Source: Catajapyx aquilonaris
Lineage: Eukaryota
Reading direction: 5' to 3'
DNA length: 64,000 bases
Assembly (NCBI GenBank): GCA_000934665.2
Contig: KZ538007.1
Coordinates: 1-64,000, forward strand
Shown: positions 19,069 through 64,000 of the stretch, in pieces
Layout of the letters: every line of letters begins with the position of its first letter
Position numbering within the stretch: the first letter of the stretch is position 1
The notes under the pieces: generated by a model
What the model saw: only the letters and a program-made list of their open reading frames with translations
What the model was told of the DNA's origin: nothing
Database searches by the model: none
Translations under genes and position numbers: made by a program

Positions 19069-19069
<1 letters not shown>

Positions 19070-19129
<60 letters not shown>
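19070..19129. repeat. (ATT)20 microsatellite
   Basis: Perfect 60-nt ATT run. Confidence 0.98.
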
Positions 19130-26951: not shown

Positions 26952-27016
26952 GTATAGGGTGAATCCGCTGAAGGATAGGCGTGTATCTGCTGAAGCATAG
27001 GCATGTATCCGCCTAA

Positions 27017-27183: not shown

Positions 27184-27184
27184 C

Positions 27185-27343: not shown

Positions 27344-27410
27344 ATAAGGAAAGGCGTGTATCTGCTGAATGATAGACGTATATCCTCTGGAAGGAAAGGT
27401 TGGGTCATGG

Positions 27411-30600: not shown

Positions 30601-31736
30601 TCATATGAATGAAACAATTCGTTAAAAAATACAGTCGTAACATTTGGTTTTTAGAAAGCAGATTACACGGCCGCTGATTAATTCATGAAAAATAAGCGAA
30701 ATCGATAAGCAGTGTACCCGAGTGTACCTCCAATATTGCCTGTCCCTGCATCGGATAGCAATGTATCGCCTAGATTGGGACACTATCCACTGCTTTATTA
30801 ATTTGGACCCCTCATTGGCATGCAGGAGAGCCATGTTTGTTTTTGTGAAATACCGGTACATGAATAGCAATACAATAATAATGAAAACGTGCTCACAAAT
30901 GGGCCCTACTCTCATCGCAAAACACGTCGATGTAGCAGATTCACTCCTCCAATAGTGAAGTCCCAGAAAAAAAGGAGCAGCCTGACAACCTTCTATTGGA
31001 AATCACTATCACTTTAATTAAGGTTGACTCCAGACTTCCAATTCCGCTTTTCATAATCCTTGAGAGCAATACCGGCATTTCTATAGTCTTCTCTGGTCCC
31101 CCTACGCGTTATATGGTATAGCATACCCGCATAGTGATCCTCATAACTCGGCCATAAAGCGCGTAATAAATTTTTGAGGAAAGGAAGCTGTCATTGCCAT
31201 CTTCGGGGGTCTACTGCCCCATTTCGTCAGAGGGGTTTGGACCGCTATAAATCTCCTCTCCGACACTTTCTTTACGGCCGCATTCACAGCAATTAGAGCC
31301 CAAGTGACTTTTCGGGAGAGTCATAAGGTGGTTCGTCGAAGCTTGGCCCCCTACCGTGTGTAGAACGATTGTGGTCGTGACCGATAGAGGGTTTTCGAAT
31401 GTGGGTTGACTCTATACGTTTATTTTCTTGTAAATTCTAGGTAGTTGACCTGGCCGTATAATTTGGTTAAAATGTTGCTGGAGTGGTGGAAAGTTGAATA
31501 TACATATATCATATATCAGTGCTGATGGCAGAGTGCACGTTATATAGTTTATGAGAGAATGGTAGCCAAATGAAGTTTATTTAACGATGGTGCAGTGCGT
31601 AATGCTGTGTATAATATACTCATGTGTATACTGTACACGGGGTTTCATGCTGAGGCATGCGTTCATAAAGAGAGGGTATGAAAAATGCAGTTGCGACTAC
31701 CTCCATTTTAAAAAGTTATAATAGCTATCGCTTTAA

Positions 31737-32173
31737 AGGGACACTCCACTCAAAATACAAGTTGGCCCCCAAAAATCGGGCAAAAAATCCGATGTGCAAT
31801 CGTTTTTTTTCTACGCCCAACGGTAACACGGAAAATCATATATCTACACACGTCGTCTCGCGTCGTCTGCTAAGAAGGGCGATACAACAGCATCTCGCGG
31901 CAAACCGGAGAAGTAGAGAAGGAGAGAAGAGGAGAGCCGCGCCAGGCTGGCGCGGCAGTTGTTTGTTGATCACCTTCTCTAGTTCCGCCCGGTTCCACTC
32001 TGGTGGCGTCGCCACCTGCGCCCACCGCCCCGCGCGCGGTTTTCGAATGACACACTTCCAGCTTTCACACTGGCCTTACCGTTCGTCTCTAAGAAAAACT
32101 GCTTATACCCTCGGAATCAGGATTTTTTGCCCGATTTTTAGAACCCAACTTGTATTTTGAGTGGAGTGTTCCT
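31737..32173. mobile_element. TTAA-specific MITE with AGG termini (Kolobok/T2-like), 437 bp
   Basis: TTAA|AGGGACACTCCACTCAAAATACAAGTTGG...CCAACTTGTATTTTGAGTGGAGTGTTCCT|TTAA. Imperfect TIR extends about 55 bp. GC-rich core. Confidence 0.9.
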
Positions 32174-37649: not shown

Positions 37650-37744
37650 ACTTATATTGCATCTTCTAATTCAAAAAAATTATTCTTCATCGCTGACTAC
37701 CCCTCATAGAGAAGTGTCGTGTTGTTGTTGTTGTTGTTGTTGTT
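37650..37744 (+). mobile_element. Extremely 5'-truncated RTE-family retroelement end with (GTT)8 tail
   Basis: TTCATCGCTGACTACCCCT...GTCGTG(TTG)n is shared with the minus-strand element at 51608-51932. TSD TTGTGTTCTTCGCT at 37636-37649 and 37743-37756. Confidence 0.8.
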
Positions 37745-40700: not shown

Positions 40701-43700
40701 CTGGCCTCCCGAAGAGATGTTTCTCAATCCGATAAGTCACGGCGGGGGGCAATTTCCTGGCGAATAAATCCCAAATCTGTTCACTTCCTACGTCTATTCT
40801 CCTTCCCCGCTCCATTAGAGAAGTTGTGCCGGCGTAATCCGACGATTTAGTCAATTGGCTGCGAATAATCCTCAGACCCCGGGATGACTGGAGAGTATGG
40901 AGGCAGGGACGGGCAGGGAAGGGCAAGGCAGGGAAAGGGCTTACCAACGGAGCTAATTACAAGTCTGCACATTAAAAGTGTGGAGGCTCGGAGATGTAAC
41001 AGTGAAGTAAAAAAAGGACTGCTCTTTTAGTCATTTCCAGGCTCTCTTGGGCCTCAGGTTTTCTTCCACAGTTGCCAAGAGATTAAAACCAACTGGTGCT
41101 GGGAGGATGCCCAGAGCTTACCCACACTTCTTGGTGCCCATTTCAACCCCCTTCTCTCCACCCCTGATCCCAACCTCCGCCTAGCAAGCTCCCCCCCCNC
41201 CCCGATGTGAGTTATTACCCATCCTTTTTCCCTCCCGTATCTTCTCCAGATTGCCGGAGTCAGCCGCTTTTGTCTGCCCGCATGCTCCGGCGCCAGATTC
41301 ACCCTGTCTCTTATAGGTCCAACGGGCTCATCTATTCCTACCTTGAAGCAGGTATTCGAGGGAGAGAGGTACTCATTCAAGTCTGTTTTCAAGGGGCTTG
41401 GACATAATTTAGTAGAGAATGAATGGCCGATGGATGGACGTTCGAGTTTCATTTGTACATCTGGAAGGGTGCTATGGCTGATAGAGGGCGATGGGATACC
41501 AGCACCAGTAGGGGCTTCTCACGTTCTTGTCCATGCCTGTATATGTAGTGTACACTAAAGAAATATTTAGGTAAATTCATTCAGCCAAATCAACCATTTC
41601 TGTGTTTCAGTGTTTATTTTTCTATATATCATAAAATGGCAAAAAGGCTTTAGTAACGAAAATTACGAGAAAACGTGTGATTATGCATAGCCAGATATTT
41701 TCTCTTAATTTGAGTAGATACAAACTAGCCCTACGCTTCGATGCGCTTAGCACATGGCCGCGTTGGAAGCGTCGCCTGAAGTGTAATTGATGGCCATCCC
41801 GGTAATGGGGGCGCTTGCACACGTAATGGGGTCGCCACCCCCTGTTGTACCTTCTAGTAATTTGTGGCCAGCCAGCTAAAGGGGGCGCTCAGGGTGCTTC
41901 AAAAAGCACCCTCATCCCTTGATAATATTTGGAAAGTGCATTCGATGCTCTCCCAACTGACTCTAATATTCGTTGGTATTACGAGCCACTAAGTTTTAAA
42001 TTAATTACATTCTTGTCGAATCTCTGGATGTTTTGGCAAAAAAATCAAATAAAATAAAGTAGGCTTTAAAAGCGAATAGTTGTTGCCCTCCCCCATCTCC
42101 CATCCTCATATTTATGCAGTACAGATGTGGATGGTGGCACGTGGCGTCATCAAGATACCCGGCATGAATTTTTGAGAGACACGGGGGCCGCTACCACTTG
42201 GCAATTCAACCAGGTATCGCTTTATCGGTCCTGGAGGCTACTACACTTTCCTCCCCGCCTTACCCCTCCTTCCATCCCTCCCACTCCTAGCCTTCCATCT
42301 CTCCGGCGCAAAGTTCGTCAATACATCTCCGGAATTGGCCTCCGCGGGCCCGGAACCCAGTTTGGCACCTAATGAGATTATAATTACGAGATTTTGCAGG
42401 GGAATTTCCATACTGGCTTTTCGGAGAGGGATGTCGGTAGGGAGGATAGCGGGGAGAGGGAAAAGGAGGAAGGAAGGAAAATGTCGGGAGGTATGGAAAC
42501 GAGGTGAAATGGGACGTGCTATGAGATAGGGTGAGGGGGGGGGGGTAGAGGGGAAAAAGGGAGGCATTTTTTTCCCTGAAGAAGTGAGAGGCAACCACCG
42601 CTTCTCTTTTCATGCTGGGGAGACAACAAGGAGGGATTCAAGTGAGCTCCCTCATTAGCGTTTGTCATAGCGCGATTAATGGTTTTATGGCGCCTTTTTC
42701 AATTTCAGGATAAGTTGGGCCCTGGGGTGTTAGCACATTTCGGCAGTCATTTTGGAGGCGGATGCAATCAGGGGGGTTTAAAATTTGGTGTTAGGGTTGG
42801 ATTTCACGGGGGGTCGTGGAGTACACCTTGTAGGTTACGAAACTTTCAATTTTACTTTCCAGACGAAAATAGAGGCTCGTAAGTTTTACGTAACTTGGAA
42901 CTTGGAACATTTCATTCACTCTTAATAATTCATTTACCGATTTCGAGATGAGAATCCGGAGAATCCATTGTCACTTTTCCTGTCGCGGCAAGTTTCCACG
43001 TGGGTATTATAATAATAATTTATTGTTATGTTCGCAGAACATCACTGAGATACCCACAATGTAGAGATATGGATGGGCAAAATAGTCTTCATCTAGCTAG
43101 AGTGTCTGTGTAGCACCAGCAAACATTTCGTCTTTGATATGCAATACGCTTGCATTAAAATTACCTCCAGGACTTGAAGCGGTTAAGAGAAAATGTGTTA
43201 GTCTAGTGATGTTTGTCTGTGTAACATGAAGGAACAGGGTTGGAGTGCTGCTCAGTGGTAAATTTATTTGACTTTCCAAGATTTCTCTTTCTCTTCTCTG
43301 GGAGACAATGAGCAAAATACCCGTAACTAGTTGGTTTAAGAATTACCACCTTGACAACGGCACAGAGAGGTATTTAGGCTGACGACGTAGGCGGTGGCGG
43401 AAGTTAATGACATGACAGGTTAAGATGAGCGCATGACTGTACATATAACACAGTTAAAGGAAAATCAATAGACCTCCTACCTGAGGGGACCATTTCAATG
43501 TACCAATGATGGCCAACGATTACGAACATTATGCATATGTGCATTCGGGTAATGAGTGTCCAAAACTACTTATTCCCACGATAATCACTAAATACATTTT
43601 CAGGTACGTGGGATAAAGTAGAGCTCTAACGACCCCTTTTAAACTTCATGTTATTAATGAAGATGACATTTTTGGTCTTTGACAATGGCGCTGCTTCACC

Positions 43701-45496
43701 ACTCTTATAATAGCATGTCAAAGGCACAAGCTTGTAAGCCCGAAGTGCGGTACTACATGGATAATGTCGTTATTGCTTCAACGTGGGTGACGGCGCAGCT
43801 GTGTGACACGCTCCGCTGTGTGAGCAGCTTTTTAGCAATTTTTTTAACGAATTGTCAAATTGACTCATTGGTTACGTCGCGATGTTGACACGTCATCAGT
43901 ATAAAGTAAAAGTGCATTGAGAAAATGTTTCTTCGTAACTTTTCAAGAAATTTGTGCTGTAATGCGTAAGGCTGTGTCATTACAAGGGCGTCGACTGAAT
44001 TGACAGGTTCAGTTTCTCATATGGACTTGACATGATTACAGTTCATATTTAATTGACATTTCGGTACATCAATAAAGTGATGTTGAACAAGCGCCATATT
44101 TAAACACCATGATTCTTCCATGGTGGCGTCACTTCTACATACTGTAGTGCATCAGAGCGGCCTTCAAAGTAATAATGGATGTATACTGTAAACGCTGTCA
44201 AAAACAGCTAGTGTAGATGTAGTGCAATGCTTTTTCAGTAAATTTTCTCCCTTCAAATTAGTCAAATATTGAATGTAGTAATGTACTGTACGCTGTAGAT
44301 GGAATTAAAATCGCCTGGCGAACAAATAGTAATTACAGTTATTATTTAGCAGCTGAGTGAAGGTTACACATTAAAGAGAAATCTGTTGTACAACAATATA
44401 CTGCACAAATGTCATGAACACTGGACAGGTACATTGCGCAGAACATTGTTGTGGGCGTGGAAATGACACCTTCAATTATAGTGGTGCGGTTACATAAACA
44501 TTCTGGCCCTCGCAGTATGCAAGCATTGCTCATTTATTATACAAGTAGGTGCAAGTCAAGTGCTAAGCAGTTCCATAATTATGAAATGAGCAATTTGCAA
44601 CGCGATGGTTTGAAAATGAGTCTGAGATCTCTTTTGTGTACTGCGTAGGTCCAAAGCTAAGTAGTCTGTATAACATCAGTTACTAAGTTATAAACATTTT
44701 CTAAGGATTATCTCTAGCAGAATCACTAGTGCTTCTTCCATGTTGGATACAGCCTTATGACCTAATATGTTAGGAGTTCCTACTGTTGCAATCATAATGC
44801 AATTATAGACGCGAATTGTCGTAAGTTCTGCACGTCTGGTAAATGATGGTTTCTTATTAATTACATTCTTGCTTAAATTCTTGCTATTTTTGAACTTCAT
44901 GATTCTCGCTCCTGCGCACGTACTGCATATTAAACTTCATAATCTCATACCTTAGTCTGATATACGGTATAGGTTGCACGGTGCAGTTTTTTTGCGGAAA
45001 AGAAGTCTACCTAGTAACAAAAATTTAGGGAGAATCACCATACCCTTCTGGGCAACGATTTTTTTTGACCTTGTTTTCTGAAGGGAGGATTGGGGTAAAG
45101 GGATTTTGGGCACTATCCTGTTTCAGCCAGGCTCCACTAATTTATTTATAAAGGCCCTGAGCGCACATTTGCGCCCACGTTATTTTGCTTTCAAACCGTA
45201 TTTTTTTAAAAAAGGGAGAGCACAGTAGACTGGACCTAATTGACTTGCTTTCACTAACACTCCGCATCCTGTTACGTGACAATCGCATCGTAAGTTTGTT
45301 ATGCAAGAGACATGTTAGTGTTGGAAGTACGTACCTTCACTTAATGCCAGGTGGTAGAAAGGGTGTGATAAATTGCACTACTGACGCCACCTCTATAGGC
45401 GAAAAAGGAAAACATAACTCTTGATTGCCTCGATGTACACGGTAGCCATATATTTATTAATTTATTTTATTATATAATAATTAATTGTTGTCTTAA

Positions 45497-46045
45497 TAGT
45501 AAAACTTCTATAAGTCGAAGTTCTCTATGAGTCGAAGAAAATGTGAGCTTGGTTGGTCACAATGTAAAATAATAGGAAATAAACTTCCCTAACTCGAATT
45601 TCTACAACTCGAAGTGCAGGCAGGGCCTTACGATGGGATATCAATGCATTTTCAGTCTCCCTAAGTCGAAGTTCATGTTGGCGAGTACGGAAAATTTTCT
45701 CATTTCCCAGCCGAAGGGTCGAGAGTAGGCCACGTGTACAGAAAGGCCCTATTTCCTGATCTCTGTCTACCAGACGTATCGAAAGAAGTGTTTGACTCGA
45801 TTGTGACAATCGAATCCTTGAATCTAAGTGTAGGCAAATGCCCATAACATATTTTTTACAACAAAACAACGACGAACATTGTAAACTGTGTGATAGTGAC
45901 AGTTATTTTAAAGTTTTGAACACCTTTCGTCGCTGGATATAAAGGTAGGCTTTCTTATAGAGTTATGTGCTTTAAAAAATCCAAACTTCTCTAAATCGAA
46001 GTTTTTTCACGTCCCATGGAGATTCGACTTATATAAGTTTTACTG
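45497..46045. mobile_element. pogo/Tigger-like MITE, about 549 bp
   Basis: TIRs TAGTAAAACTTCTATAAGTCGAA and TTCGACTTATATAAGTTTTACTG (21/23 match). TA follows the right end. Internal AAGTCGAAG repeats. Confidence 0.8.
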
Positions 46046-46167
46046 TAGGTATGCGTGAAATATGCTGGTGTTTATCAATATTGTGTTAGCCTACGCCCTA
46101 TACAGTAAGCAAGTAGGCCTAATTCTAATAGTTATATGGTGGGGAGTGTATTATTACAAGCTGAAAC

Positions 46168-46409
46168 ACCGAAGCTAATCGGGAGGTCCTGGGTTCGATT
46201 CCCGGGGCCGGCGATCCTGACGTGGTTTTCTGTGGTTTTCCACGGCTCCCCCAGGATAATTCCGGGATTGCTTCCGTATAACCAAAACAGCCTCCCTCCT
46301 TCCTTCCTTCCATATCCTTGGCCCAATGCAATGGTGGTATTCTACCACCCCAATGGAGCGCCGCTTCTCCCAATGGGGTAAAAAAATTAACAATGAAATA
46401 ATTTAAAAA
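46168..46409 (+). mobile_element. 5'-truncated tRNA-derived SINE with 19-bp TSD
   Basis: B-box GGTTCGATTCCC, body homologous to 9800-10105, A-rich tail. Exact TSD TATTATTACAAGCTGAAAC at 46149-46167 and 46410-46428. Confidence 0.92.
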
Positions 46410-49400
46410 TATTATTACAAGCTGAAACCATATAAATATGTTGGTAATGTCAATACAGTATTTCGTATCATTTCTTGACATGTAGAAGTATAAAAATTGA
46501 CATGTAACAGTAATTTTTATGAGACATTTCTGTTCCATAATTGTATAATTATTACAATAATTATTTAGTCACACACATATATGCCTCCAAATCAATCCTA
46601 CTTCTGCTAAATATCACTCCATATCAAACATTTTTTGAGGACGATGCTACCACTTGAGCCCCCCCCCCCCTTAAAAAAAATGTTCGAAGCGTGTAACTGA
46701 AACCCAGGCTAATATTGAAATAGCCTAATCGCTTCCAGACCATTTTCCCTCCCACGTGCTCGTTCCCCATTTTTGTTGCACACCTTGTTTGCACCGAGGG
46801 CGACAATCTGGCTGTTTCTTTGTCCGGAACGGCTCATTTACCCCGGATTGAATGTGTGGACAGCGATGAGCCCGATTATAGCACAGCAACGCCACTTGAC
46901 ACTCCGCAGGCACTCACTTTTCCATGTAAATGAGAATGTCTACGAAGTGCCAAATTACTGTAGGGAGGAGAAGAGGAAGGGGTGGTGGTGGGGAGAAGGT
47001 TTGGAAATCCTGTGTCGTATGGAAAGGAGGGCACTTGGGGCCTTGGCCTCTGCCTGCCGCTGACGTTTCATCGCCGCTCGGGAGACTATCAGCCAGAACC
47101 TCGCTTTTCATTTCCCCAGTTTTCCTCTTTTCCCTCCTGCCGGGAGCTGGATTGGATGCGGAAAATCTGCCATAAATGGAAGGGATGTATAGGGAGTGCA
47201 GGGGTGGGAAGGGGCGCGGGGTCGGGATGGGGGGAAAGCGGGAAGTAGGGGGTGGAGGTGAAGGGGGGGGAAGAAACCCTGCCAGGCGAAAACTTATAAC
47301 TCGGTGTAAAATGAAACTTTGGGCCCCCCCTCCTATACCCCCAAGATGTGAAACAATTCGTTTTCGCGTCTGCTAATTCGTGAGTCTCAAGTTTGACAAG
47401 AATTTTCCCGAGTTATTGCAGCTTTAGGCGGATTTGCCCCCCCTCCCCCCATTCCGGCCATTTTTATTTTTTAATTTGAATTTGACATGTAGAACATGAA
47501 GGATTTGGGGGAGAACCCCCAGGGGGCGGGCTCATATCGAAAGAAATTATATCCAGATAAACTTTGTTGCCGGTTGGAAATGTTACGCTCTGCTGCCATG
47601 TACCGACTCTGCCGAGTGGAATTGACTCTGCAAGTCATTCGGCGTTATTTGCACCGCCAACGTGGATTTATTTGATAAGGTAATGAAAGAGATGCCGTGA
47701 TGTACTGTACGCTGCAAATAGAAAGTGTGTCGCTTTATTAAATTTGCCGCCTGGGTTTCAGTTTTCGCTCTCGACTTCATGGCGTTGCATCAACGTATTT
47801 TTGCTAGGCTTGTTGCAGTATCCTGACAGCCTAGAGAGGGCTTGATTTTAGAAGGAGGTAAGGAAGAAGTTCTTTCAAGCAGACTGCACCATTTGCTAGG
47901 GAGTATAAGCCTCTTGTCGGATATGGAAGCGGCATGTAGTCTTTGTATTGAAGGGTAGAAGCCACCAGAAGAGGCAGCCATTTTTGTGAAGAAGTTTGGA
48001 GTCTTTTCTTGAATAGAAGAGGATAGGAAATGATTATCCGTCGATGGAGTACGGGGATCTGTTGATACAGTAAAAAAAAGTTAATAGCAACTCTTGGCCT
48101 ATTCCTGTATATTTACTTTGAAAGCAATAGGCAAATGCAAATATTATATGATTATACCACATTAAAGTCAGAAGTTTGCAGACTGTTGTTTTGGCTTGGG
48201 CTTATTTTCATTTACATGTTGAGTCCTTAAATTCTTGGAAGCTGGTAACGTTATAGTACACGAAGCCAATATTCTCTCCATATCACATTTGATATTCTCA
48301 AAATTTGCTGATACATAATGGATGACTTTCAGTAGTGATTGTATCTTTGAGTTGCATCAGTTTAGTAACTTATACCTGCATAACGTAGCAGCGCAATAAT
48401 AAAAGGCTACCACATTAAGAGAAAAATGGTGATGTTTGTTGCTTTCCAGTGTGTGAAAAAAATTGAAATCGTTAATGCCCAGTGTATAGACTATTGTACT
48501 CACCTCGGGTTATGGTTGGTTACATGCGCCCATGTTGTTTGAATTGGGTCCATGGGCTGCCTTGTTTATGCTGCAACTGACACAGCAGTACCTGCAGGCT
48601 GACCCAGCTTGCATTGCTTCCTATATGGCGGATTTTCTAACATCAGTATGCTGCACCTGCTGCATAACTGCCCATTGATGTTTACAAACTTCAAAGCATA
48701 TTAGTTAGGAGCTCGATTGATTAAACAAAAAATATAGACGCTTTCTCTCAAGAGACGCATCGTTTTAATCTTGATCTCCATTTAAATGCGTGAATATAAT
48801 GAGGGAGTGAATTTTTGATTCAAAATTTTCGACGTCGGATGCACATTGCGAGGACCGAGTTACCGCATGTTACATGGTAAATGCAGAAATCTGTCACAGT
48901 AGTGTCTGTCAACCAATCTTTGAATGCGAAACACAAATAGCCATATGAACTTGTACATACGTAATTACTCCCTGCGCGTATGTCATAGTGCGCATTTAAA
49001 TATGACTGAATGAAAACCTCATCCGTTGCTTTAGAAACGGGCCCCTAATTGCGAAACGTGGCATTATGAAAATTGCATAACCCATATAATTAGACCCCCT
49101 CATGTACTAATGGTCCGAAAATAGTCAGCGTTCCCATGCAAAATTATTCTGCGGAGATGAGCATTAAACATTAAAAAGGTACCCGAAGGCCACCTGAAAA
49201 TTTAATCACATCTGCAGCAATCTGCCTGACCTTTTAACTCCGTGGACAATCCCTGCAGTAGCCTTGTGAACTTGGTCCAGTTCAAAATTCATACTAAAGA
49301 CTATTTCATTCGAATAAAACCTGACGCTGAAAACATCCCAATTCCAGCCACAAATTGCAAAGAGAAAAAAAAACTCCCACATATATCCCATCCAATGTAT

Positions 49401-50407
49401 TCAGTGCGTGGCATACGCACACGCACGTCGGACATATTTTGTCTCTCAGCTTTACTAATGCACTATGGTAATTGGAGGCTGCCCCATGTCCAGACAATGA
49501 AAGGGAAGGATTTCCAATTCATGCCATAGCTAATGAAACCTTCATTAACTGTGTGGTAACAACTGAGGCGTTCGGAGTTGAAGACCCGGGTATTAATGCG
49601 GGGTGTCGTACCCCATTATTTTTCATGTGTCTCCAAAGTGTAACGTGGGGGATTGCATATAATGGCAGTGTTGGATTGCAGGAGGGGTTATGCCTTTTAG
49701 TCACTGTGATTAGATGGTCTTCGGGCGAAATCCAGTTGAGGACATCAAGGGCGTAAAAATTTACGACTTCCTTTTTGACCATTTTAAGTTACTAATGACT
49801 CCAGGTTGTGTTTCATAGGGCCGTATCCTTCGGGCGAAACGAATTTGGCAAAAGGAAATATGGCCGTAGATGAGGTATTGAATTTCCATAGGCGGATTAT
49901 TGAAACTTGTACTTTGCAGTGGTGTGTAATATTAACGAAACAGTACCCTATACAGGATAGGCGCGATTTTTTAAAATGCCGTACATAAATATTGTACATC
50001 GTGTGTAATATTGTGAGAGGAATTACGTAACGTACTCTAGAATGTACATCGTTTGTAATATAGTGCCCTTATTTAATTTTTAATGGGGTTGTAACTGCTA
50101 TATCTGGATGCATATGAAAATTAAGCAAGCATGTGTTTTTAGAAGACATGGAATTTATGATTGCCCTTTGTGTCATTGTTGCATTTTTACTTACATAATT
50201 TTTGTGAGACTTTAAAAAGTGGAAATGCGATAGTGTATCCATATAATTTGTTAAGAACAAAAGAACCGCACTGAATGTACCATCTCGTAATTTAATTTCC
50301 CATCAGTAATATAGTTGAAGCAAAATTTCACTGTATTTAATATGCACAAACAATTCACAAGAGAAATACCAATAAACAGCATAATTTATGTTATGATGGT
50401 CATATGG

Positions 50408-51367
50408 CAGGTGAGTCGGGGCAAGTGCTACCCTGTTTTACATAGGTTGACTTTGGGTGAGGATTGTGCCGCTCAGGAAGCTGCAAAATGTTGAATGTAT
50501 AACCACGTGTAGAGTAACTAATTATCTTTTAGTGATCACAGCATCAATAGGGTATGGTTTTGCAATTGTCTGAAAATTAATTATTCCCGAAACTGTGTCA
50601 CGGATTTGGCACTTGCCCCGACGTGGGGTAAGAGCGACTACTGGCCTTATCTTTGCAGGAGAGCATCGGGTAAGGGAAATGAGGTACGTGGCGACTAGGA
50701 TAGCACTTGCTATAGAGTTCTTTTCCGAATCAAAATACCTTTTCCCATTGTCAATTATCAACTTTCAATGAAAATCTGCATAAGACTTGAGTATGCCCAG
50801 AGGAGAAAAAGTCCCCAAGTTACATAGTATATGAGTTGACCGGCATGTGAATAAAATAAGTTAGTATGTCTCAGAAGCACTTCTTCAGTAAACGGAATGC
50901 CGCACTCACACGTTTAGCACACATTTAAACATGAAAAATCCACTCCAAATAGTAATGCTCCACGTCTGGGGTCTTCCTAGGGCGCACTTGCCCCAGTGTC
51001 ACATTGTCATGGGCAACTGCGACCTAGGCAACTAAAGGTGACGTCATAATCTTATTCGTTAATTACACAACATCTATGAAAAGGCCATAGAAAATGCTTC
51101 GTAACTATGCAAAAATAGAACACCCAGCATGTTGAACTGCACCTACAGAAAATATCATCCGAAGTTCGTCGATCTTCTGAAGGTGAGATGTGAGGGTCGC
51201 GCGTTCTGCCTCCATCATAGCCACACAAAGCCAGTAACGCTGGAAAATATTTGTGCCCTACGTTGACCGAGGTCAGGACAATCATATGGGGCTGTCGCGA
51301 AAAGTGGCAGGATTTTTTTTCCGAAGTCGCACTTACCCCGATTCGGCACTTGACCCGACTTATATTG
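50408..51367. mobile_element. Old non-autonomous DNA transposon (Tc1/pogo-like), about 960 bp
   Basis: Degenerate TIRs CAGGTGAGTCGGGGCAAGTGC and GCACTTGACCCGACTTATATTG. GCACTTRCCCC recurs at 50609, 50984 and 51329. No clean TSD. Confidence 0.55.
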
Positions 51368-51607
51368 ATAGTGATTTTTAACGCAGCGGGCTGGTTCACT
51401 TTTGAGGTGTAGTTAATACTATCCCAGGGGATGACTCTAAAATGCTACTGCCGTTTTCCCACATCAAACTCGCCACTAACTAATTTAACTGTCTTCTTTT
51501 TTCATACGTATTATTGTTGAAAGCTCCGTTTGATACATAAATAATATACCATAATTATAATGCCCAGAGGTCCAGTATGTAAAAGATTCATGACAGCTGT
51601 TGGTCAA

Positions 51608-51932
51608 CAACAACATCACGACATATCCCTATACATAAGGGGTAGTCAGCGATGAATGGAGACGCAAGATAACTCCACATATGAACTAAATTAAAACTTG
51701 TCAAAATAAAAATATAAACTACTCATCCCACCTCCTACCTGTGTACCTCCCTCCTCCTCTATTACTCACCCCCATTTATAATCAACCTACGCCATTTACA
51801 CCTGTCTAAACAAACAACCTTAGCCTCAGCCGTGTCCATGGTCCTATTGACACATGAACGTCTAGGCTTAACACTATACGCTATACTAGCAACGCCCTTA
51901 TGACACTGACCCACCTCGTCCAACCTTCCTAG
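51608..51932 (-). mobile_element. 5'-truncated RTE-clade LINE (ORF C-terminus, 3'UTR, (GTT)n tail)
   Basis: Minus-strand peptide ...RLDEV...RRSCVNRTMDTAEAKVVCLDRCKWRRLI resembles RTE ORF C-termini. The tail reads as AAC repeats on +. TSD GCTGTTGGTCAA (51596-51607) and GCTATTGGTCAA (51933-51944). Confidence 0.8.
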
Positions 51933-54774
51933 GCTATTGGTCAAGCAGAGGTATAATGTGTAAAAACTGAATAATTTACATTTTTAAAGTTGAGTTTTTG
52001 TTATTTAAGTAGTTTTTTTCAAGGAACTATTGTGCGTAAATTACTGATTGGAATCATTAAAGAGAGGGGCGGAATTTAAAAAGCTGATAGTACTTGGCGA
52101 GACAGCCAGTTTCGGGCTTACCCACTGACACTGCACTCACAAAAGCAGTGGTAAGCATGTGGCACACCTTCTATCACTATGAGGTCTGCAGAATCTATTG
52201 AAACCGGAGATACAAAGGTTCGGATATTTTTGAAGTTCATACTATACGTTTATGAGTCAAAGTTCACCGACTAAACTGTATCAAACCAACTACTGTACTA
52301 CTGTTCCAAGAGTTATTAGCTCTTGCTGTTACTGATAATGATGATATGGAAGCCTGAACAACTACGTGGTAAATAATAATTTAAAAATTACGTGTGGGAG
52401 GAGAATTCACTGGACATAATTATGATGATGTGCAGGTAGTTGCTCATAAAACATACAGAGACATGAATAAGGATAAGACAGTAACGTACGCAGAGCGTAT
52501 GATACGGACTTCTCTACAATACGTAATATTTTCCCATACTTTTCTAGCTACGTGTCTTAATGTTCTCATAATACCTCTAACTAATAATACTTCGCACTGC
52601 AAAATTATTCTCTAAATCCAGCAGTTGCTGCAGTTAACCAATGTAACGAAGCCACTAGCGAATGAAACCCCTGGAAGGAATCCGATTTTTCCCCCCCTTC
52701 TTCCTCCTTCTCTTCCTACATTGTGTTGTAAAGTGTAGGAAACATGTTGCGTGTCAGGCACATAGAAGAAGCTCCCTATTCAGCAAGAGCGGCTAAAAAG
52801 TATGGAAGAGCTTGAGAGAAATCCCGTCAATAATTCAGGCAGTAAAAAAGGGCCGGCTCCACAAGGGTTTTCCATTCAGTGGACACCTAGTGTAGAAATG
52901 GAAGCGTGGGAGAAAAGGAAATGGGAGGAAGTATCTCTCTTGTATACGAGAGCTACTTCGAAGATCATGATGACTTGTTCGCTTTTGGTCTCTGTCTGAC
53001 AACATGGAGGATGAGCAGGTCGCCACTTTCAGCCAACTCTGAGCAGGATTAGCTGGGATTAACAGGGTACGTGTCGCAAGAAAGCGAAAAAGTTGGCAAG
53101 TTGGATTGAAAGGTAATTGGAGGTGATTGTGGGCTGAAATTGGATGACGCCTAGAGCCGTCAGCAAAAAAAAAAATGGGCGCGTTTCAGTCGCAGTTAGT
53201 CTAGGAAGCAAAAGGCCAGAGGTCCTAACACACGAACCGACAAGCCCTACTTTCTACCTTGATACATATCCTAAAAGCACTCGTGAATAATTGTCACGTC
53301 TTGAAAATTTCAAGCCTCAGCCCCGAGGACCAGCCCGTTATCATCATCATCATTTGAAACTTTCGCGTGCACAGGATCTCTCCATACAGGTAATTGTCTT
53401 TCAAGAAGCGGGGGACCGGGTCCTTGAACCTCGCTCTCCCGGTTAAATCCAGAAGGCAGATTAGGAACAGGTGACTAATGGCCTTAGTGGGACGCCACCT
53501 TAATCCTGGATGCACACCAAAGTGCAAGCGGAAAGCCAGGGTGAAAGCTCCTGCTTCTCTTTCGTCCCTCTGGAATTGGCCCTCGACCTCCAAATTGTTG
53601 TCGGTTCCGTCAAACGTTTCAATTTTGCACTTTCCTTCTCGAAATCGTGCAAATTGGCAACACGGCAGTCTCCCGGGCCAATCAGCTCCATTCACCTCCC
53701 CAGGCGATTGGCCCCCCGCACCTGCGCGCGGTGTTGCACTTTGCCCAACTCCAGCTTTCAGCTCTAATTTGATTTTCCCCTTGCGGACGACACGATTCAA
53801 AGTGTCGCATGCTCGCCACAAGGTGGGTGCCACACTGCGATTGCACTCTTCGATATTATCAACTTTACCTCCCATTCCCCAGGTTACTTTTAATTAACTG
53901 GATGCGGAAAAGCAGCCTAGTTCCAAATCTATTCGTTCATTTTCTGCGAGTTAGGTTGCCATAAACCGAGTTTTGCAGTGCTTATCCCCGAGCAAAATAC
54001 CTGATTCAAGCAAATCAGTCTTCCGAAATAGAATTCTGATGATGCCAAATTTTTGAGTGATGGTCACCTGCGAAGAAGCAGTCCTTCGTATTTAGAAAAA
54101 GCTCTCTGAATTAAGCCGGTCTGTAATTCATCCCTATTTATGGTTATTGGTTTGAAACGCATACCTAATTGGAATGTAGCCTTTGATTAATTAATTCCGG
54201 GATCCAATATCAAACCAGTCTGGTTCCGATACCGCACCACAGGGCATTTTTCGATTCCCAACGGCGCACAGTTTTCGCCAAAAGGGACGGGATGTGGGAT
54301 GTTGGGGGATGGGAGGTAGGGATGGACGGGGGAGAAATTTAGGAATCAGTTTTGCAACCGGCCATACCTATGGCAGAGGAAAGCATGCTAAAAATTTCGA
54401 ATTTGTGTAAATGATATGCCGTGACAAATTAGCAAAGTGATTTAAGCAATATCAAGTGGACTTTTATGGTGTGGATCCAAATGGGGCTGGGCTTTTTGAA
54501 CACATGGCGGTGTGTGTTCACAGGGTGTTACAGCATGTAAATGTTTTGCATTTTTGATGCCGGCACACTGTGCTGCAACTAATAATGTTAGCGTCGTAAT
54601 ACAAAGTGCCCTGTAGCACTATTTTTCCACCCAGTATACGGGACATTGACTCCTCGTGACCAAACTGTTGTAAGTGCATTGGGTAACACTAGTGTCGACT
54701 AATTTTTTACTGAAAATATGACAAACAGAATATTATGAATAGTGAAGTCACAAGGGAACGTACCCTAAATCATG

Positions 54775-54847
54775 AAACTAAATTCATGTGTAAACAATGC
54801 ACTTCTTATGGGGATAAGAAGTGCATTGTTTACACATGAATTAGTTT
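54775..54847. repeat. Perfect 29-bp inverted repeat with GGGG loop
   Basis: 54781-54809 is the exact reverse complement of 54814-54842, and pairing extends a few more bases past a 1-nt bulge. Confidence 0.95.
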
Positions 54848-56469
54848 AATGTTACTGTGCACTGCAATGAATGTTCCATCACAGAATACTTGTAATAATT
54901 ATTTCTCAGTGTGTTTCGATTTCAAAACTTCACACTTGAACCTAGTGGTCGGCCCATACTATGCCAAAAATATGATATCTCCATTCATGTAACCTTGTTT
55001 CCCGAGATGGCGATACGTTGTGACCTCGACATGATAAACCCAAGCTATGTGCACCCATTTGATGTCCGTAATAAAAATCCTCACGACGAAATAAAACATG
55101 GTACAGGGCACCTGCAGTAATGGCACGCGAGTTACTATTTCATTTCGTCAGTGTCATTTAACCTCGTTATTGTGCACCGTGATGCTAGGGGATTTCATGA
55201 GTCGGGCTCATGCATTTCTGGGGCGATGTTCCGAGTGCTATTCTGCTCCCATGACTTTTTCATTAGGCGGAATAAGATAGTACACAAAGACCTTTTGGTT
55301 TTGCTCCTTGGCGATTTTGTATGGCCCTAGCCTGGTTGCCTCTTGTTGACATGGTGCTGAGGTTGCCTCCGCAGCAAAGGCTCATTTAAGACCGGCACAA
55401 AAGCTAGGGACGATGGTACATTCACTCACAGTACCAGTTTTATTCACCCACTCGCAAAATGTGGCTGCTGCCTGCTTGCCTGCCTCAATGGATGGTTGTG
55501 GGCACAAAAGGGCATTTTTTGCACCATTTTTCATTTTTTGGGCTGTGACTGGATGTGATGGACAGTTTTTGACGGAAACTCGTCCCTTTGTCACTTGCCT
55601 GTATGTAGTAAGGTAGACAATAACGGATTTTGCACACTGGCGCAGTTATAATTTATTCCATAAGTTCAAATGACGTGATGTGACCTTCATCAGTAACTGC
55701 TGTCATTTCGTGTACTTTTTTATTAGCAAGAATCTCTAATAATTGCGCAAACTTATAATTTTAGCCAAATGCTATTGAAATATAGTCTCATTACATGATT
55801 GAAATTTAATGATATGTCTCATAAATTAGGTTTTGTAAATACTGTATCTGCATTAGGGCTTATGAACGTAATGCACCTCTAATTAAAATGAATATATTCA
55901 TGTATGTATTAATAATAGGGTACATTTTTATTGAACGTGGTAATATAATGCATAATGTACCATTCATAATGACAATATTATGGGTATAGTCCGGAATTGA
56001 AATGGGACAGTTCAGCGGCAGGTCCTGGAATGAGGCAATCAAAAATGTAGTGTGACGAAAAAATATCGCCTGGAATTTTTCATAAAATAGATATTGCGAA
56101 TAGTATACATTTTTGTATATTTACATTTAATATTCTTATTGACTTCACCGCGACGTGCAGGTGAGCATATCCAATTTAATTCTGGACCACCATGTACTGT
56201 ATATTGCAACCATTGTAGCGTAATACAGTACACCTTGATGCAAATAGTTTAAAATGAACGGCTATAAATGAGGGGAATAATAATTGCAGGATTATATTGT
56301 TAACCGCCGGATTGCAACAGTTAATGTACGATATCAGCGTATTGATTACCTTACGCTAATAAATTTCATTAAACAGTCGGAGGAGAGCTGTTAATGTGGC
56401 ATTTCTAGCAACCGTGCGAGACTAATCCCATGTTAGTAATCTAACGCAAATTATGACTAGAAAGTACAA

Positions 56470-56561
56470 GAACCTAAACACAATCTTCTTCTTTCAGGTA
56501 AGATGCGTATCATCGCATTCACACTCTAACCAACATTACATTTGATCCTGACAAGGTAAGT
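56470..56561 (+). promoter_or_regulatory. Candidate recursive splice site (ratchet point) plus 58-nt cryptic exon
   Basis: TCTTCTTCTTTCAG|GTAAGA at 56497/56498, with no AG in the preceding ~25 nt. Downstream donor AAG|GTAAGT at 56555/56556. Same strand as the AP-2 exon. Confidence 0.65.
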
Positions 56562-58833
56562 AATAATAAATCATGCAACATGGCCGTATCAAATATGAGT
56601 GTCATGCATTGTGGTTGTTGCACCTGCAGGAACAATATTGACGGGGAATTATTTTTGCTGATACGTTGTTATTTGCGGGCTGATAATTAATGATATGATA
56701 TTATTTTTCCTGCGAGGGAATTAAAATGACAATTATTGGACAGGATGTTTAATTTGGTTGTTCCCACAACCGGATAAAATAAACATCAACTCTGCGAGAT
56801 CCCCACAATGCAGTATTACAATAATTATAATTTAATCCGTAATGGTCTTGTTTTTGTGAGGCGAGGGTTGGTACTAGTGGTGAGCACTGTTGTTTTGATG
56901 CAGTGTATGAATGGCTGATTCAGAAGGGTCAAATTAGTATTCAAAAAGACCGAGAAATTATTCCTGCGAAGGGCCATTAAAAAGTCGTCTTGAAAAAACT
57001 GCAAGTAAATAAGCGCTCCTTGAGGTAAATAATATGGGCATGTTAACTAGAAAGGACTGTATATGTTGACACGGAAAATACTGCATTTTATTTTGAACGC
57101 TACGATTGGCACATTGAAAATATTTCAACCATCTTATTTGTAAACATGTCAGAGTCAGTATAGCGTAGAAAGGGCGAAAATTATTATGTCGATTTAGACA
57201 AAAGTGGTTAATTACGTTGGAAGCAATCGAAAACAAAGTGCAATATAGAATTTTAAATGCTTTATGATAGGTTCATCCAATTTGCGAGGGAAAAAGTTGT
57301 TTTTTACTACTTGTCACATATGGTTCAGGATGTATAGTACAGTACAACCAACATGTAGTGGCGGCTGGTATTTCCATGCATCATGTCGAACCTGCCTATA
57401 TCCGCTTACATGTGAGATGGGCATGTGGAGGCTAGCTGCCTTTATTACTAACCGTACTATCCCCCACCCTCTCAAAGCCCAATCTGACTTTCCTACCTCC
57501 CATAAATGGACAGGTAGGCCTACTATGCGATAAGCACACAAGTCTCCACTACGTGGTGGTCTTACAGGCACTGTACCCTTCCCTCAAACTTCTCAGAATC
57601 TAGTGAATGGCACGGAGAGTTAGGAATACTACTACAGTTCCTATCATCTTCAAATCAACGTTGGCCTACAGTAAGTTTCCTTTGTTCGCAGTAGAGTAAC
57701 TTATTGTATTTGACTCTCATGAAGCACACTGTATTTCACGCATAGCAAGTGATTATTCTAGATGCAGTCTGGATGAAGTCTAGGACTCGCTTTCCAATTT
57801 CCTTTCAAGGGCTATGTATAGATTTATCTAGATTGTCTCGTACTTTCCTTATGGCAACTAATAGTTGACAAAGTACTGTAGTAATATTAACAGATTCCGA
57901 TTTTACGCTCTGGGATTCCTGATAAAAAATCATATCGTGTGTAACTAAATTTGAGGAACAGTTCTATGAATCCAATGTGACTCTAATCGTTCTGCGTTTC
58001 ACGTTTTTTATTTATTTATTTTTATTTCCCATGCCGTAGCAAGCTTGCTACTTTTAGTTCAATATGAGTTAAAGTAGCAGTAGTGACAATGCCTTGCAAC
58101 GTAATATTACAGGCCTGTTTAAAGCATTTCACGCGGGGGAGATTGCGCTTCACATTCTGCAAAGAAATACTAGTCTCACATTCTAAACATTGAGCCAATT
58201 TTGGCGAATGCTTCGCGATATTTTGGCATTCTGGTTATGTTTATTAGTGTATGGGTGTGGCCTGGCAGGAGCCCTGTGGTACTCCAGCAGCGGTCCATAT
58301 GAAGTGTTTTGTTTGCTTGTTTTTGTACCATAATTTTGCAGGAAACATTTTAGCGGAAAAATTTGCCGGGAATTCTCCACTATGTACACAGGGAACTGTA
58401 CACCGACAAGTACTTCACTTTATAACGCAGATCCATACCATTTTCTCACATTATTATTTGTTGCTAATGAACAGTAGTTGATTATATGATGTGGGTAAAG
58501 CGACATACCCTCTACACTGATGCAATACAGTCACGTTTGAACAAACTAAAGTTAAGTCATTTGGACCTCTGACCCGGATGGTCTGGCTCTATCTTGTCTC
58601 GGGACTGTACGCACAGGATTCAGATTATGTTAAAGAGTTTGACAGAATGTTTAGCTAACAGACAGAAGCATATACTTGTATTCAACAGTAATTACAAAAT
58701 GATAAAATTTCTAGTTTTTGATATTGATTATGTGGGGAGGACGGCGATTGGAGGGTTATATATGACATGAACTAATTATTTGTAGTTGAGTGTCCCGGCA
58801 GTAGGTGAATTTATGTGCCATAATTTCTATGGG

Positions 58834-58930
58834 GTTTGTTTCACAGTAGTGTCGACTGGAGGCGTCATCAAGTGAAAATGAAAAATGGGCTTGATGACGC
58901 CTCCAGTCGACACTAACATGTGAAACAAAC
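58834..58930. repeat. 97-nt hairpin (26-bp perfect stem plus 12-bp basal stem)
   Basis: 58847-58872 pairs perfectly with 58890-58915 (17-nt loop). GTTTGTTTCACA (58834-58845) pairs with TGTGAAACAAAC (58919-58930). Confidence 0.93.
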
Positions 58931-61900
58931 AAGGATGATGGGAAAGTTGTTTGACAAATACTAAATATACGAGTATGCCACACGTCGGAGTTATTATTTT
59001 AGCCTACTCCTCTTGGCTTGTTCCTGGCCCTCTAATTCTGGGTAATTGTAACATAATGCACTAAACACACTATTGTAATGGGCAGTATAAGACTGTGCCT
59101 CCTTTTGTAGTACTGCCTTTAAATAGCATGTGCATTTCTCCCCATCACTCATAACTTAGGGGTGAGCAACAGGCAAACATGCTCCACAGAAATTGTGAAG
59201 ATAACTAAGTACAAAATACTTCATTGCTCTGTGAGGAATGTAGCATGCAATGTGTGTTGAAAGTTGAAAAAATGTCTGTTAGTTATCAAAATTTTGGCCC
59301 TAAAAGCTGTTACTTTCAGGTACTTATGATTTTTTTAACTTTTAGTTTTATTTATTGCTACAAAATATTGTTTTCATTAAAATATTTTTGATGCCAAATT
59401 GGGACAGATAATGAGGACAATTAGCATGTATAGTAAGTGGAGACACCTATAGATGTAATCTCTCATCTAACCTCTCGTCTCTTTCACGTCAAAATCCATG
59501 AAGCGGTCAATGCGACCAGTGTATTAATGTGAGCTAAATTATTAATCAAATGTTATGCACAAGGTGGAGAGTACTTGGGAGAGCCCTTTCTATTGTTCGT
59601 AGGTGTTGCTAAAATGATAATTACGGTACGCAAAGTTAGAAGTTATAACACAAAAGTGTGTAGGTGACTCCAATTGTAAAGGGAGAGAAGATGGGCGTAA
59701 TCTACAATAGTTTGACATATTTTACAGTATTCAGAATCAAAATTTTACTGCGGATATAAAAGCGAGATATCATTTTTATGCAGAAGGTTTACACATATTA
59801 CGACATTCTTCGCATCCAGATTCATAAATTCAGGCAAGAGGCAGCATTGTGCCAATTTTATACCATCGGGAAGTGTTGGTAAAAATGTAGACTATCACTC
59901 ACTTTTTGTCGAAATTGAGGTAAGCATTGTGTAATAATATGATTTTTGACACGTACTTTCTGATGATAAAGTGAGTCTGATATAAAAATTAAAATCGCCT
60001 ACAGAATGTTGATTTAAAATGGGTATATACTGTACTCCCGGATAAAATTAACCGGCTGTTTGCTGCACTAAACAGCGAAGCTTCTCTGTCAATGTACCGA
60101 TTTTTTTGGATTACAGAAACATTTGGACCTATGCGAATTAAATTAAATTTTAATAATTTTTTCCTTAAGGTATTGATGGATCTGGGTGAACAATTCTGAC
60201 CCCTTTTTGCTGTAGTCATTGTTACTATTGACCCTACTTTGTGAATGTATTCCCAGTTGTGAAATTACCACTTCTATAGTAAATAATTACACAGTTTATC
60301 ACTAAATCACACTATGATTGTAGTCCATTTTATATCATAATGCTATACAGAGTTTGTCTCTTTAGTTTAAAAGAGAGGAAGAATTAAATGAAATATTAAA
60401 GTCTCCTGAAACATCCCTCTCTCCTCCATCAGCAGCCAACCGCCAGCGACACCAGAACTGATGAGGTTACACATTCAGGATTTTGTGGCTCTCTGACAGT
60501 GTTACAAATGTGTGCTTACTGTACACGCAGGACTGTTGCAAATATTGTGTGGTCCTGTGTGCGTTTTAACGGTAAAAATGTACTGTACGTTTAAGCTGGC
60601 AGTACTGTTGAGGATCGTAGAATGATATTGCGCTGCGCTCGGGATTTGAGGATTATGAGTGTCCAATAACTGGCTCTATTGAAATCACGGCACGGTGGGT
60701 GAAATACCGCTGTCCCGGAAATGTCGGGCATGTAGGGCTAGTTTCATATTTTGCTGACAAAATATTGACAGTCATTCAGGCATTTTTAAATCCCATCCAA
60801 AGCAGCATCAGTCATTAATTGAGCAATGGAAGAGGCAAGAGGCAAAATATTCTTCCGAAATTGTGAGATTTTACACGGGCCAAGTACAACCCTTTTTTTC
60901 AGCACTGTTACTATTGTAATACATAAATTTAATAAGTGAATTAATTTGGCCCTTTTTTTCGTCTCGATTGAAAAGTGTGCTAATAATTAGATTGGAAGAT
61001 CTATTTGCAACACACCTTGACTCTAGTTGCATACTACTTCAACCTCTTCAATGGAACACTATAACCACAGGCTTACTAAAGTATACCCTTGTAGATGCAT
61101 CTATACATATGGTATACCAAAACATGTATAGGGAAAAAGCGCACTTGACACATGATGTGTCCAACCTTTGTGGTTCCATAGGATAATGCAGGGGGTTACA
61201 GATCAGAAGCCAGACTATAGCATCGTCACCCAACTACAAGTACCAATCAGAAGGGTGCACGAGGGATTACGCCTACAACACACACCAATAGGTGTGTCGT
61301 GACAGTAAGAACACTCTGCTTTATTGTGATCCGGATATGTTTGAGCTTTCCCTTCTGTACGAAAAAGCCACAACATCCGCTTAAAAACCTGCGAACCCAC
61401 TAATCTGAACTAATTCCGCTTGTGGAAAATTAAGCCTCGTTTTATGCCTTTTTTTTCTCTCTCTCTCCCTCCAAAAGCTCCGGTTTCCTGGGCCAATGCT
61501 CAATTCACTAAACGAAATTTCAAGTTATTATTACGATTAGCCCTAGTTAAAAACAAGCATAGAAAAAGGGAGGGGTTTCTCCTTCATGATTATAATCGGC
61601 GTGAAGTGAACCCAGAAGCACGCCATTTCCAGCAGGCGTTGGTGCTAGAAAATGCTATAGTTGCTATGCAGTTGTTTTTGTTTTCATTTTTTTTGTGAGC
61701 GTGTGTGTGTTCGTCCGTTGAGGACTAGTTAACGCGAAAGCCCGTTAGAGCTGAGTACGAGTGGTATGACGACTGTTTTATAAGCTGTAGAATATAGTGG
61801 GAGATCAGAGGTTTTAGTGCGCTCATTTTTGGCTCATTTGCCTTTTTTCAGGTTTTTGTCTCGGTTGTTTCACTCCGCTTCGGAAGCTATTCAAGTAGTC

Positions 61901-62089
61901 ACAATGTTGTTGGTTTTTTCCGTGTGAGACGCTTTTTTATAGAAATCCTGTACTCTGACTAGTAGGCCTATGTCAAAAAATATATACGGTAACTGCAGGG
62001 TTGTGAGATCAATTTGTAAATACTTTTGGACAATATTATTTACTTTCTTCTGCTATACGTATTGATTATGGGCTAGTATTTCCCTTCCT

Positions 62090-62300
62090 ACAATGTATCT
62101 CTTTGCGACCTAGACAACCTTAATTCCGATAAGTTCGGTTGGTCAGTTCCTAGCCTGCTCTTTGTTTAGCTGAAAGGACTAACTGCTATCTTAGGTTAGG
62201 AAGCAGGTGGTTTTTTCGGTTTCAGTCGCGGGCGTCTGCGGATTTGAACCCGGATCCCCGGATTCGCAGTCTAGCATGTGAGCCTTCCCTGAGTCGCTCT
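62090..62300 (-). mobile_element. Probable tRNA-derived SINE of a second family
   Basis: Minus strand reads GCTAGACTGCGAATCCGGGGATCCGGGTTCAAATCCG, an anticodon-arm-like segment plus B-box (62240-62250). No acceptor stem; ends are approximate. Confidence 0.55.
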
Positions 62301-62773
62301 TGAAGACATGGTACAAGCTCGTTCAGAAAAATCGTTGCAGTAAGCTTAGATTGTCGTTATTATAAGACCAGTAAACAATGTCTGAAAGCGTAACTGTTTG
62401 CAATTAAAGCCCAAATTAATGCTTCTATTCAACCTAATATACGCTAATGTTTCGGCAAGCCACTAAAAGCAACTTAGTATAGAAAACTCACTAACTGAAA
62501 CAGACACCTCAATTGAAACACACTCTGTTCTGCTCAACTGCCGACTGCCTTCTCACTAAAAGAAGCACGTGCTATATAACTGATTTTTATACGCACTCAA
62601 AAGTGCAAAAGCCCGTTCCTCAAATGGAGTGGACAAGTTTGTAACCTGCTTTTAAAATACACCAGATGGAGCCCGTAATGAATCCAGTGACATACAATTT
62701 GAACACTAAATGTTGACTTCTAACACTGAGACCGTATTTGAAATTCAAATAGAAGATGGCAGTCCCCCCCCCC

Positions 62774-62863
62774 NNNNNNNNNNNNNNNNNNNNNNNNNNN
62801 NNNNNNNNNNNNNNNNNNNNNNNNNNNNNNNNNNNNNNNNNNNNNNNNNNNNNNNNNNNNNNN
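62774..62863. other. Assembly gap (90 N) between poly-C runs
   Basis: Run of N flanked by C homopolymers. Single Ns also sit in G/C runs at 24420, 35861 and 41199. Confidence 0.99.
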
Positions 62864-64000
62864 CCCCCCCCCCCCCGACCCAAACAGAAAGAGGGAGAGT
62901 ATGGCTAGAAATAAAAAAGAAGGGGGTGAGGGTAGGGTGGGCTTTGCTAGAGAGTCGGATCTCTCCCCACAGTTCTCCATCTTGGGAGAACATTGGAATG
63001 GTTCCCAGCAGTCTAGTTACTGTATATTCCGAGCACAGAAGGTGAGAGTATATAAGTTGGTGGGCAAGGGAGCAGGAGGGCAAAGTATCTTTCCCCGGAT
63101 AGGAAGTGGCCTGAGGCTTGCCAAGTAATTGAAAGAAGTGATTCTGGCCGGAACTTTCCTCTCAAGAATCGTGCGGCCTGCCAGAAAAGGAGAGTGCTTC
63201 GATTCACACTTGCACAATTGCAATTCCACACGGAATCGGGACGTGTGAGCAGCATTGGCACAAGTGCGTTTATTCTTCGCCCTTTGCACGCCCCTGCTTC
63301 TTTTTTTTCTGTCCCTCTTGCGGGACATGGTTGCAGGTTGGGGTTGCGGAATTGTCGTAGATTTATGTGTTGGCATGGGCTGTGACTGCTTTGAATTGCA
63401 TCAGAAATGTACTGCATAGTGTGCAGGTGAGCAGAAGCTGCTGTCAACCCCTACCGTGCAGCTGAACCGGATTTCAGAGTTGAGGTATTATGATGCGATG
63501 GAGATACACTTATGATTTAATTATAATTTAATATTATTTCATGTATACTCGAATTTAGGTTAATTATTTTATGATTAATTTTTAAAATTTACGCTTCAAT
63601 AATTATTTGATATTATCAAGTAATTTTTTTATTTTATTTTGCTTAGCATAATACTGTAGGCTACGTGTAAACATCACTTATGAACAAAGTTCCTGAAATC
63701 ATTCTCAATAATATTTCACCTAATACTGTCAACGATGTTTGCTTGCATGTCCGCTGGAAGTTACCTCGCTCCCCACTGGGTGCGCCACCTCTCTGACTAC
63801 ATCCATGCTTAGCCCCCCTCCCCACACACCTTCCACTACCTTCCGCTAGAGGGTGCTCCACACGCTGCCAGGTGGCGCTCACGTACAGTTACTGCTCGCT
63901 ACGGGTACTCTTACCGCGGGCTTGTTATCTAATAAAAAGTGGATGGTTGGCTTGTTGGTTGCGTCTAAGGCTATCATTCTGGCATTCGTGTGATGGGTTT

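Follow-up and report, generated by a model that had tools for sequence, protein, structure and literature searches.

Our analysis of a 64,000-nt stretch of DNA (hereafter, the window) revealed a splice acceptor and a splice donor joined back to back at 56497|56498 on the + strand. This pair may constitute a recursive-splicing ratchet point of the Drosophila type, accompanied by a cryptic RS-exon of 58 nt and situated 41.5 kb into an intron of at least 49 kb in a gene that homology identifies as a Peptidase_M19 dipeptidase. We put the prospect that the site is used recursively at a little short of even. The initial annotation, which had proposed stepwise removal of this intron and had named the gene AP-2, finds partial support, in that the site has the expected architecture; its gene name is wrong.

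Host Gene

The first coding exon in the window (14808..14993, + strand) runs as an open reading frame from an ATG at 14808 to a splice donor and ends in phase 0. It encodes ...WPVELDIQEHIQRCPCTCDHMGYGNYLDYQLQ, which is the conserved N-terminal motif of the insect Peptidase_M19 protein 'dipeptidase 1', HIQxCxCTCxHMGYGNYxDYQ; the version found in the window is HIQRCPCTCDHMGYGNYLDYQ. A phmmer (HMMER) search of 1.84 billion representative sequences with this reading frame returned 74 homologues at E<=1e-3, all of them matched via the stretch that contains the motif. When all 74 were scanned with Pfam, Peptidase_M19 was found in three and TF_AP-2 in none. One of the 74 has ankyrin repeats, with the dipeptidase motif at its very end, and is probably a fused gene model; in addition, one homologue showed a sub-threshold RVT_1 match, one showed assorted weak matches, and the remainder matched no family. 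Full-length homologues from Diachasma, Diachasmimorpha and Daktulosphaira are named 'dipeptidase 1' by their sources. Further homologues include a hypothetical protein of Drosophila setifemur and fragments from a cockroach, a stick insect, a thrips, a louse and a springtail, and the closest relatives of the exon include a cockroach fragment. By homology, then, the host gene is an insect membrane dipeptidase (Peptidase_M19), and the AP-2 label of the initial annotation does not hold, given the Pfam counts and the names used by the sources.

The window keeps all 15 invariant columns of an alignment of eight sequences. Pfam recognized no family over the motif itself; a word search for longer relatives of the exon-1 peptide scored none, and a search at near-equal length gave one match. 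The exon-1 donor, CAG|GTAAGG (14994..14999, + strand), agrees with the consensus at 8/9 positions. Valine, encoded by GTN, directly follows DYQ in 51 of the 68 homologues that bear the motif, which points to a conserved phase-0 donor that has been read through in these sequences. The donor of the window lies two codons (LQ) beyond DYQ and is still in phase 0. In full-length proteins DYQ is followed by sequence of the TTCLTELPDV or TTGFGGLPDV type and then by the M19 domain. Conservation of the motif, and of the phase-0 boundary at which its exon ends, extends from springtail to Drosophila. The G+C content of the segment 14001-16000 is 0.512, compared with ~0.37-0.48 elsewhere; it is the sole 2-kb bin above 50%, the first coding exon falls within it, and its composition fits a promoter or first-exon region.

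Intron Extent and Contents

No later exon was found in the window, and the intron is therefore at least 49 kb long: from its homology-supported donor it occupies 14994..64000 on the + strand (at least 49,007 nt) and runs off the end of the window. A tblastn search of the window with its own peptide and with the 74 homologues gave nothing credible outside exon 1. Motif searches of the window for M19 or exon-2 sequence produced no acceptable candidate; exon 2 is short and poorly conserved and may have been missed. Upstream of 56498, neither homology nor motif searches turned up a further exon of this gene. LPDV matched the + strand at 35630 and at 45767, but both matches were rejected as exon 2, since a phase-0 acceptor with a pyrimidine tract is missing from each. 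The 49 kb that follow 14993 thus appear to behave as the beginning of a long intron. Its minimum length lies within the fly range for long introns (11-133 kb) and the site is on its sense strand, with the status of the region as an intron derived from homology.

Pfam assigned no family to any of 43 open reading frames, and Rfam and tRNA scans of the window were empty. Single N bases occur at 24420, 35861 and 41199, the one at 35861 ending a run of G, and a gap of 90 N occupies 62774-62863 between G/C-rich flanks that translate as GGG/PPP. These Ns look like assembly gaps and show the source to be a draft assembly.

Two other places in the intron have some of the features of the site. A second AG|GT is located at 34785|34786 (within 34764-34845, + strand) and reads CCCGTCAG|GTAGGG; it has no TT at -5/-6 and is weaker. 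A donor, CAG|GTGAGG, lies 54 nt downstream of it; besides this AG|GT and the site itself, none has a donor close by. It is 19.8 kb past exon 1 and 21.7 kb before 56498, and this even spacing is suggestive, yet the motif is within chance expectation. Within 50290-50416 (+ strand) lies CAG|GTGAGT, with GT at 50411; apart from the donor at 56556, no other donor on this strand is perfect. At ~50305, 105 nt before the 50411 donor, TTAATTTCCCATCAG| may be an acceptor, and the two form an exon-like unit that contains stops.

Sequence of the Site

The acceptor with its pyrimidine tract, TCTTCTTCTTTCAG (56484..56497, + strand), has TT at -6/-5 and ends in the AG at 56496-56497. The donor GTAAGA (56498..56503, + strand; GT at 56498-56499) follows immediately. 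Read directly from the sequence, TCTTCTTCTTTCAG|GTAAGA is a juxtaposed acceptor and donor that covers 56484-56503. It lies on the sense strand, 41,505 nt after 14993|14994, in agreement with the distance of 41.5 kb from the exon-1 donor that had been reported for it. Joining of exon 1 (..CAG) to this point would regenerate CAG|GTAAGA, a donor that matches the consensus at 8/9 positions. The region is unique within the 64-kb window, being neither a tandem nor a dispersed repeat. The pattern YYYYNCAGGTRAGT had no matches; position +6 at this site is A.

The consensus donor expected 58 nt downstream is present as AAG|GTAAGT (56553..56561, + strand; GT at 56556) and conforms to the consensus at all 9/9 positions. 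The putative cryptic RS-exon bounded in this way is 58 nt long (56498..56555, + strand), a length that is not a multiple of three, and each of the three reading frames contains a stop. Its phase-0 reading after exon 1 is VRCVSSHSHSNQHYI followed by a stop, the in-frame TGA at 56543..56545 (+ strand), exactly as initially annotated; this TGA is reached after 15 codons. The phase-0 reading and homology together indicate that inclusion of the 58 nt would introduce a premature stop ahead of the M19 exons, which must lie downstream.

The sequence upstream of the acceptor bore out the initial annotation only in part. Both of the branch-like motifs that it listed are present, CTAAAC at 56474..56479 and CTAAC at 56441..56445 (both + strand), but three AGs (56459-60, 56463-64 and 56469-70) intervene between the distal CTAAC and the acceptor. 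The distal motif is consequently unusable, and the proximal CTAAAC is the sole usable branch-point candidate. The A of CTAAAC is at ~-20/-21 from the acceptor, at the short edge of the interval occupied by the branch points of fly ratchet points (-36 to -21). The AG-free stretch described upstream of the acceptor also exists, but it extends over just 25 nt (56471-56495) and is weaker than had been claimed.

Frequency of the Motif and Chance Expectation

Two definitions of a ratchet motif were applied. The strict one, which follows published descriptions of TT at -5/-6, a prominent pyrimidine tract and a GTRAG donor, demanded AGGT with TT at -6/-5, a pyrimidine (Y) at -3, >=10/12 pyrimidines at -15..-4, and GTRAG; the lax one demanded >=9/12 pyrimidines and dispensed with the TT rule. 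The sense strand of the intron (14994-64000, 49,007 nt) contains 177 AGGT sites; 15 of them have TT, three also have Y at -3 and the required pyrimidines, and one, the site at 56497|56498, also has GTRAG, a count to be read with the fact that the thresholds are partly post hoc, having been fixed after the site was seen, while the TT rule is derived from the literature. On the antisense strand of the same interval there are 169 AGGT sites, 10 with TT, and none that pass the further steps. The upstream 15 kb has 64 AGGT sites on the + strand (eight with TT) and 43 on the - strand (five with TT), and here also none has the Y and pyrimidine content or the complete strict motif. The strict definition accordingly had no match in 79 kb of control sequence, made up of the 49-kb antisense strand and of the 15 kb upstream read on both strands. 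The description of the site as the best AG|GT context in 49 kb is borne out, as it is the sole strict match among the 177 sense sites.

Chance expectation was estimated with dinucleotide-preserving shuffles, a null that may understate the background of real sequence. The strict definition alone was matched in 22 of 1000 and in 38 of 2500 shuffles, and the lax definition alone in 445 of 2500. When a donor of >=8/9 positions had to lie 25-250 nt downstream, the numbers were 2/2500 for the strict and 29/2500 for the lax definition; the lax definition combined with a downstream 9/9 donor was found in 4/2500. The pattern YYYYYYNCAGGTAAG had one match, against 0.05 expected on both strands, and 5 of 100 shuffles matched it. 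Perfect MAG|GTRAGT donors occur twice on the + strand of the 64-kb window, at 50411 and 56556, and nowhere on its - strand. Exon-like acceptor-donor pairs at moderate thresholds are about as frequent on the sense strand (5) as on the antisense strand (4); the rare element is the juxtaposition AG|GTAAG alone, not the presence of exon-like pairs. The observation itself is confirmed, and pure chance is an unlikely source of it. A rarity of ~0.001-0.012 under the null favours a real site, given even a modest rate of fly-type sites in the long introns of the host.

Donor-like 9-mers (>=8/9) in 14994-64000 are about twice as numerous on the sense strand (20) as on the antisense strand (11). This excess accompanies a G>C and T>A skew of the + strand. 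The same counts show no sign of depletion of cryptic donors on the sense strand of the intron.

Donor Balance and Proposed Mechanism

Duplex energies with the 5' end of U1 were -11.0 kcal/mol for the regenerated CAG|GTAAGA, -12.2 kcal/mol for the downstream AAG|GTAAGT, and -11.5 kcal/mol for the exon-1 donor CAG|GTAAGG. In Drosophila the ratchet donor is generally stronger than the donor of the RS-exon, with exceptions such as hth. Here the downstream donor is slightly the stronger of the two, in duplex energy as well as in agreement with the consensus (9/9 against 8/9 positions). This reversal of the usual Drosophila pattern predicts appreciable inclusion of the 58 nt. It is compatible either with a switch or with a non-functional decoy.

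The mechanism that we propose presupposes transcription of the + strand across the site and use of its acceptor, both of which we infer. The 58-nt unit would be recognized by exon definition, with U2AF bound to the TT-containing pyrimidine tract and AG (56484-56497) and U1 bound to the donor at 56556. Splicing of exon 1 (..CAG) to 56498 would remove the first 41.5 kb of the intron and regenerate CAG|GTAAGA. The outcome of the second step would then depend on the donor: the regenerated donor would discard the 58 nt and lead to a productive mRNA, and the donor at 56556 would include them, giving a TGA after 15 codons together with a frameshift.

Near-equal donors would also suit an NMD switch, as had been suggested initially. 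That the choice between the nearly balanced donors (-11.0 and -12.2 kcal/mol) is regulated, so that recursive splicing is coupled to NMD as a switch on the membrane dipeptidase gene, is conjecture, and we regard it as improbable.

Comparison with Known Recursive Splice Sites

In flies a ratchet point consists of an acceptor and a donor in tandem within a long intron, and 196 of 197 such points have TT at -5/-6. Evolutionary conservation of these sites is strong, and the associated cryptic exon is short (~50 nt), poorly conserved and usually out of frame. Ratchet sites are carried by 63-70% of the fly introns that exceed 40 kb, with enrichment in first introns. Recursive segments in flies are typically 9-15 kb long; an earlier study gave a mean of 18 kb and a range of 2.6-63.6 kb. 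The candidate site shares with the Drosophila ratchet points (Burnette, 2005; Duff, 2015; Joseph, 2018, 2021; Pai, 2018) the tract-CAG|GTAAG arrangement with TT at -5/-6, the very long intron of the first type, and a cryptic exon of ~50 nt that is out of frame and has its own donor. It differs from them in its non-drosophilid insect host, in the slightly stronger downstream donor, and in a first segment of 41.5 kb instead of the usual 9-18 kb.

The Ubx microexons mI and mII have the same regenerated donor, GTAAGA, straight after the acceptor, and a similarly short exon (51 nt, as against 58 nt here) that is included or skipped by choice of donor, as is proposed here. Unlike the 58-nt interval, which is closed in all frames, they code for protein, keep the frame and are ultraconserved from end to end. 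Vertebrate RS-exons (Sibley, 2015; Blazquez, 2018) belong to a different lineage; in common with the candidate they bring in a premature stop when included, and competition between two donors decides the outcome. The nearest parallel in its setting is the 230-kb intron of NPF1 in the migratory locust, where, according to the published account, a recursive site was likewise predicted by motif; that intron too is very long and its host an insect outside Diptera. The kinds of evidence differ: the Drosophila set is defined by conservation and junction reads, control by the exon junction complex and coupling to NMD have been demonstrated for vertebrate RS-exons, and the locust site is reportedly backed by a U2AF65 pull-down, whereas the present site is known from its sequence motif. 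Outside Diptera and vertebrates recursive splicing is barely documented; as far as the accessible portion of that literature goes, the predicted locust site is the one case known.

The supplements of Pai (2018) contained neither 'dipeptidase' nor any of four M19 gene names, which may be incorrect; these data concern S2 cells only and have little weight. Among metagenome contigs the 23-mer of the site had no matches. Its 19-mer core occurred at 19 loci in the same collection, all attributable to chance and none with flank similarity beyond the seed, and these matches are uninformative on conservation.

Alternative Explanations

Several considerations pull against recursive use of the site: the uncertain prior outside Diptera, the post hoc element in the thresholds, the donor balance, the marginal branch point, and the long first segment, 41.5 kb with no equally good site upstream of 56498. 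One alternative is that the site is a chance decoy or pseudoexon, in which a (TCT)n-like run happens to abut AGGTAAG with a consensus donor 58 nt further on, and the splicing machinery ignores the whole or uses it as noise. Long introns are full of exon-like pairs, as the nearly equal counts on the sense and antisense strands (5 and 4) illustrate; the lax definition alone was matched in 445 of 2500 shuffles, and the 19-mer core had 19 chance occurrences without flank similarity in the metagenome collection. Fly ratchet points, moreover, do not typically show such a donor balance, a first segment of 41.5 kb or so short an AG-free zone. What a decoy explains poorly is the joint configuration, which is rare in shuffles (2/2500 under the strict definition, 29/2500 under the lax one and 4/2500 with the 9/9 donor) and has no counterpart in the 79 kb of real sequence used as control, and the fact that the site obeys the TT rule of the literature, which just 15 of the 177 sense AGGT sites do. 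We consider a decoy a possibility of some substance, with a probability well below even.

The same signals would serve a genuine exon of 58 nt under conventional splicing. Such an exon might belong to the dipeptidase gene, as a poison or non-coding cassette, or to a separate + strand ncRNA, in either case with an incidental GTAAGA that is not spliced again. The strong acceptor and the 9/9 donor 58 nt from it fit such an exon, and the downstream donor, whose strength equals or exceeds that of the ratchet donor, favours its plain inclusion; with all three frames closed, it could be only a non-coding or a poison exon. This explanation has to accept GTAAG as the first five bases of the exon, a coincidence of ~1 in 1000 as estimated from base frequencies, and Drosophila expressed RS-exons of the same layout were re-spliced when tested. 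A conventional exon is on this evidence unlikely. The motif would be irrelevant altogether if there were no + strand intron here, either because the exon 14808-14993 is a stranded or duplicated relic or because the transcript ends before 56 kb. The later exons of the gene are absent from the window, and continuity of the transcript is accordingly presumed. The exon, however, keeps an open frame and 15/15 invariant residues that lead into a good donor, and annotated relatives splice the same exon to exons of the M19 domain, all of which makes the lack of an intron very improbable. Recursive splicing at 56497|56498 is the explanation that we prefer.

Implications

At present the site stands as a prediction, made from motifs, that a known mechanism operates here; it is a well-specified target for RT-PCR and RNA-seq, and its gene is relabelled as an M19 dipeptidase instead of AP-2. 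Should the site prove real, the locus would offer a pair of near-equal donors with which to ask how competition between donors divides the output into productive and poisoned mRNA. If the reading as a regulated switch is true, the fly-type architecture, including the TT rule, would extend to large-genome insects. Recursive use of the site would mean that the fly-type ratchet grammar, namely a tract with TT at -5/-6, AG|GTAAG and a cryptic exon of ~50 nt, operates in another insect lineage with long introns.
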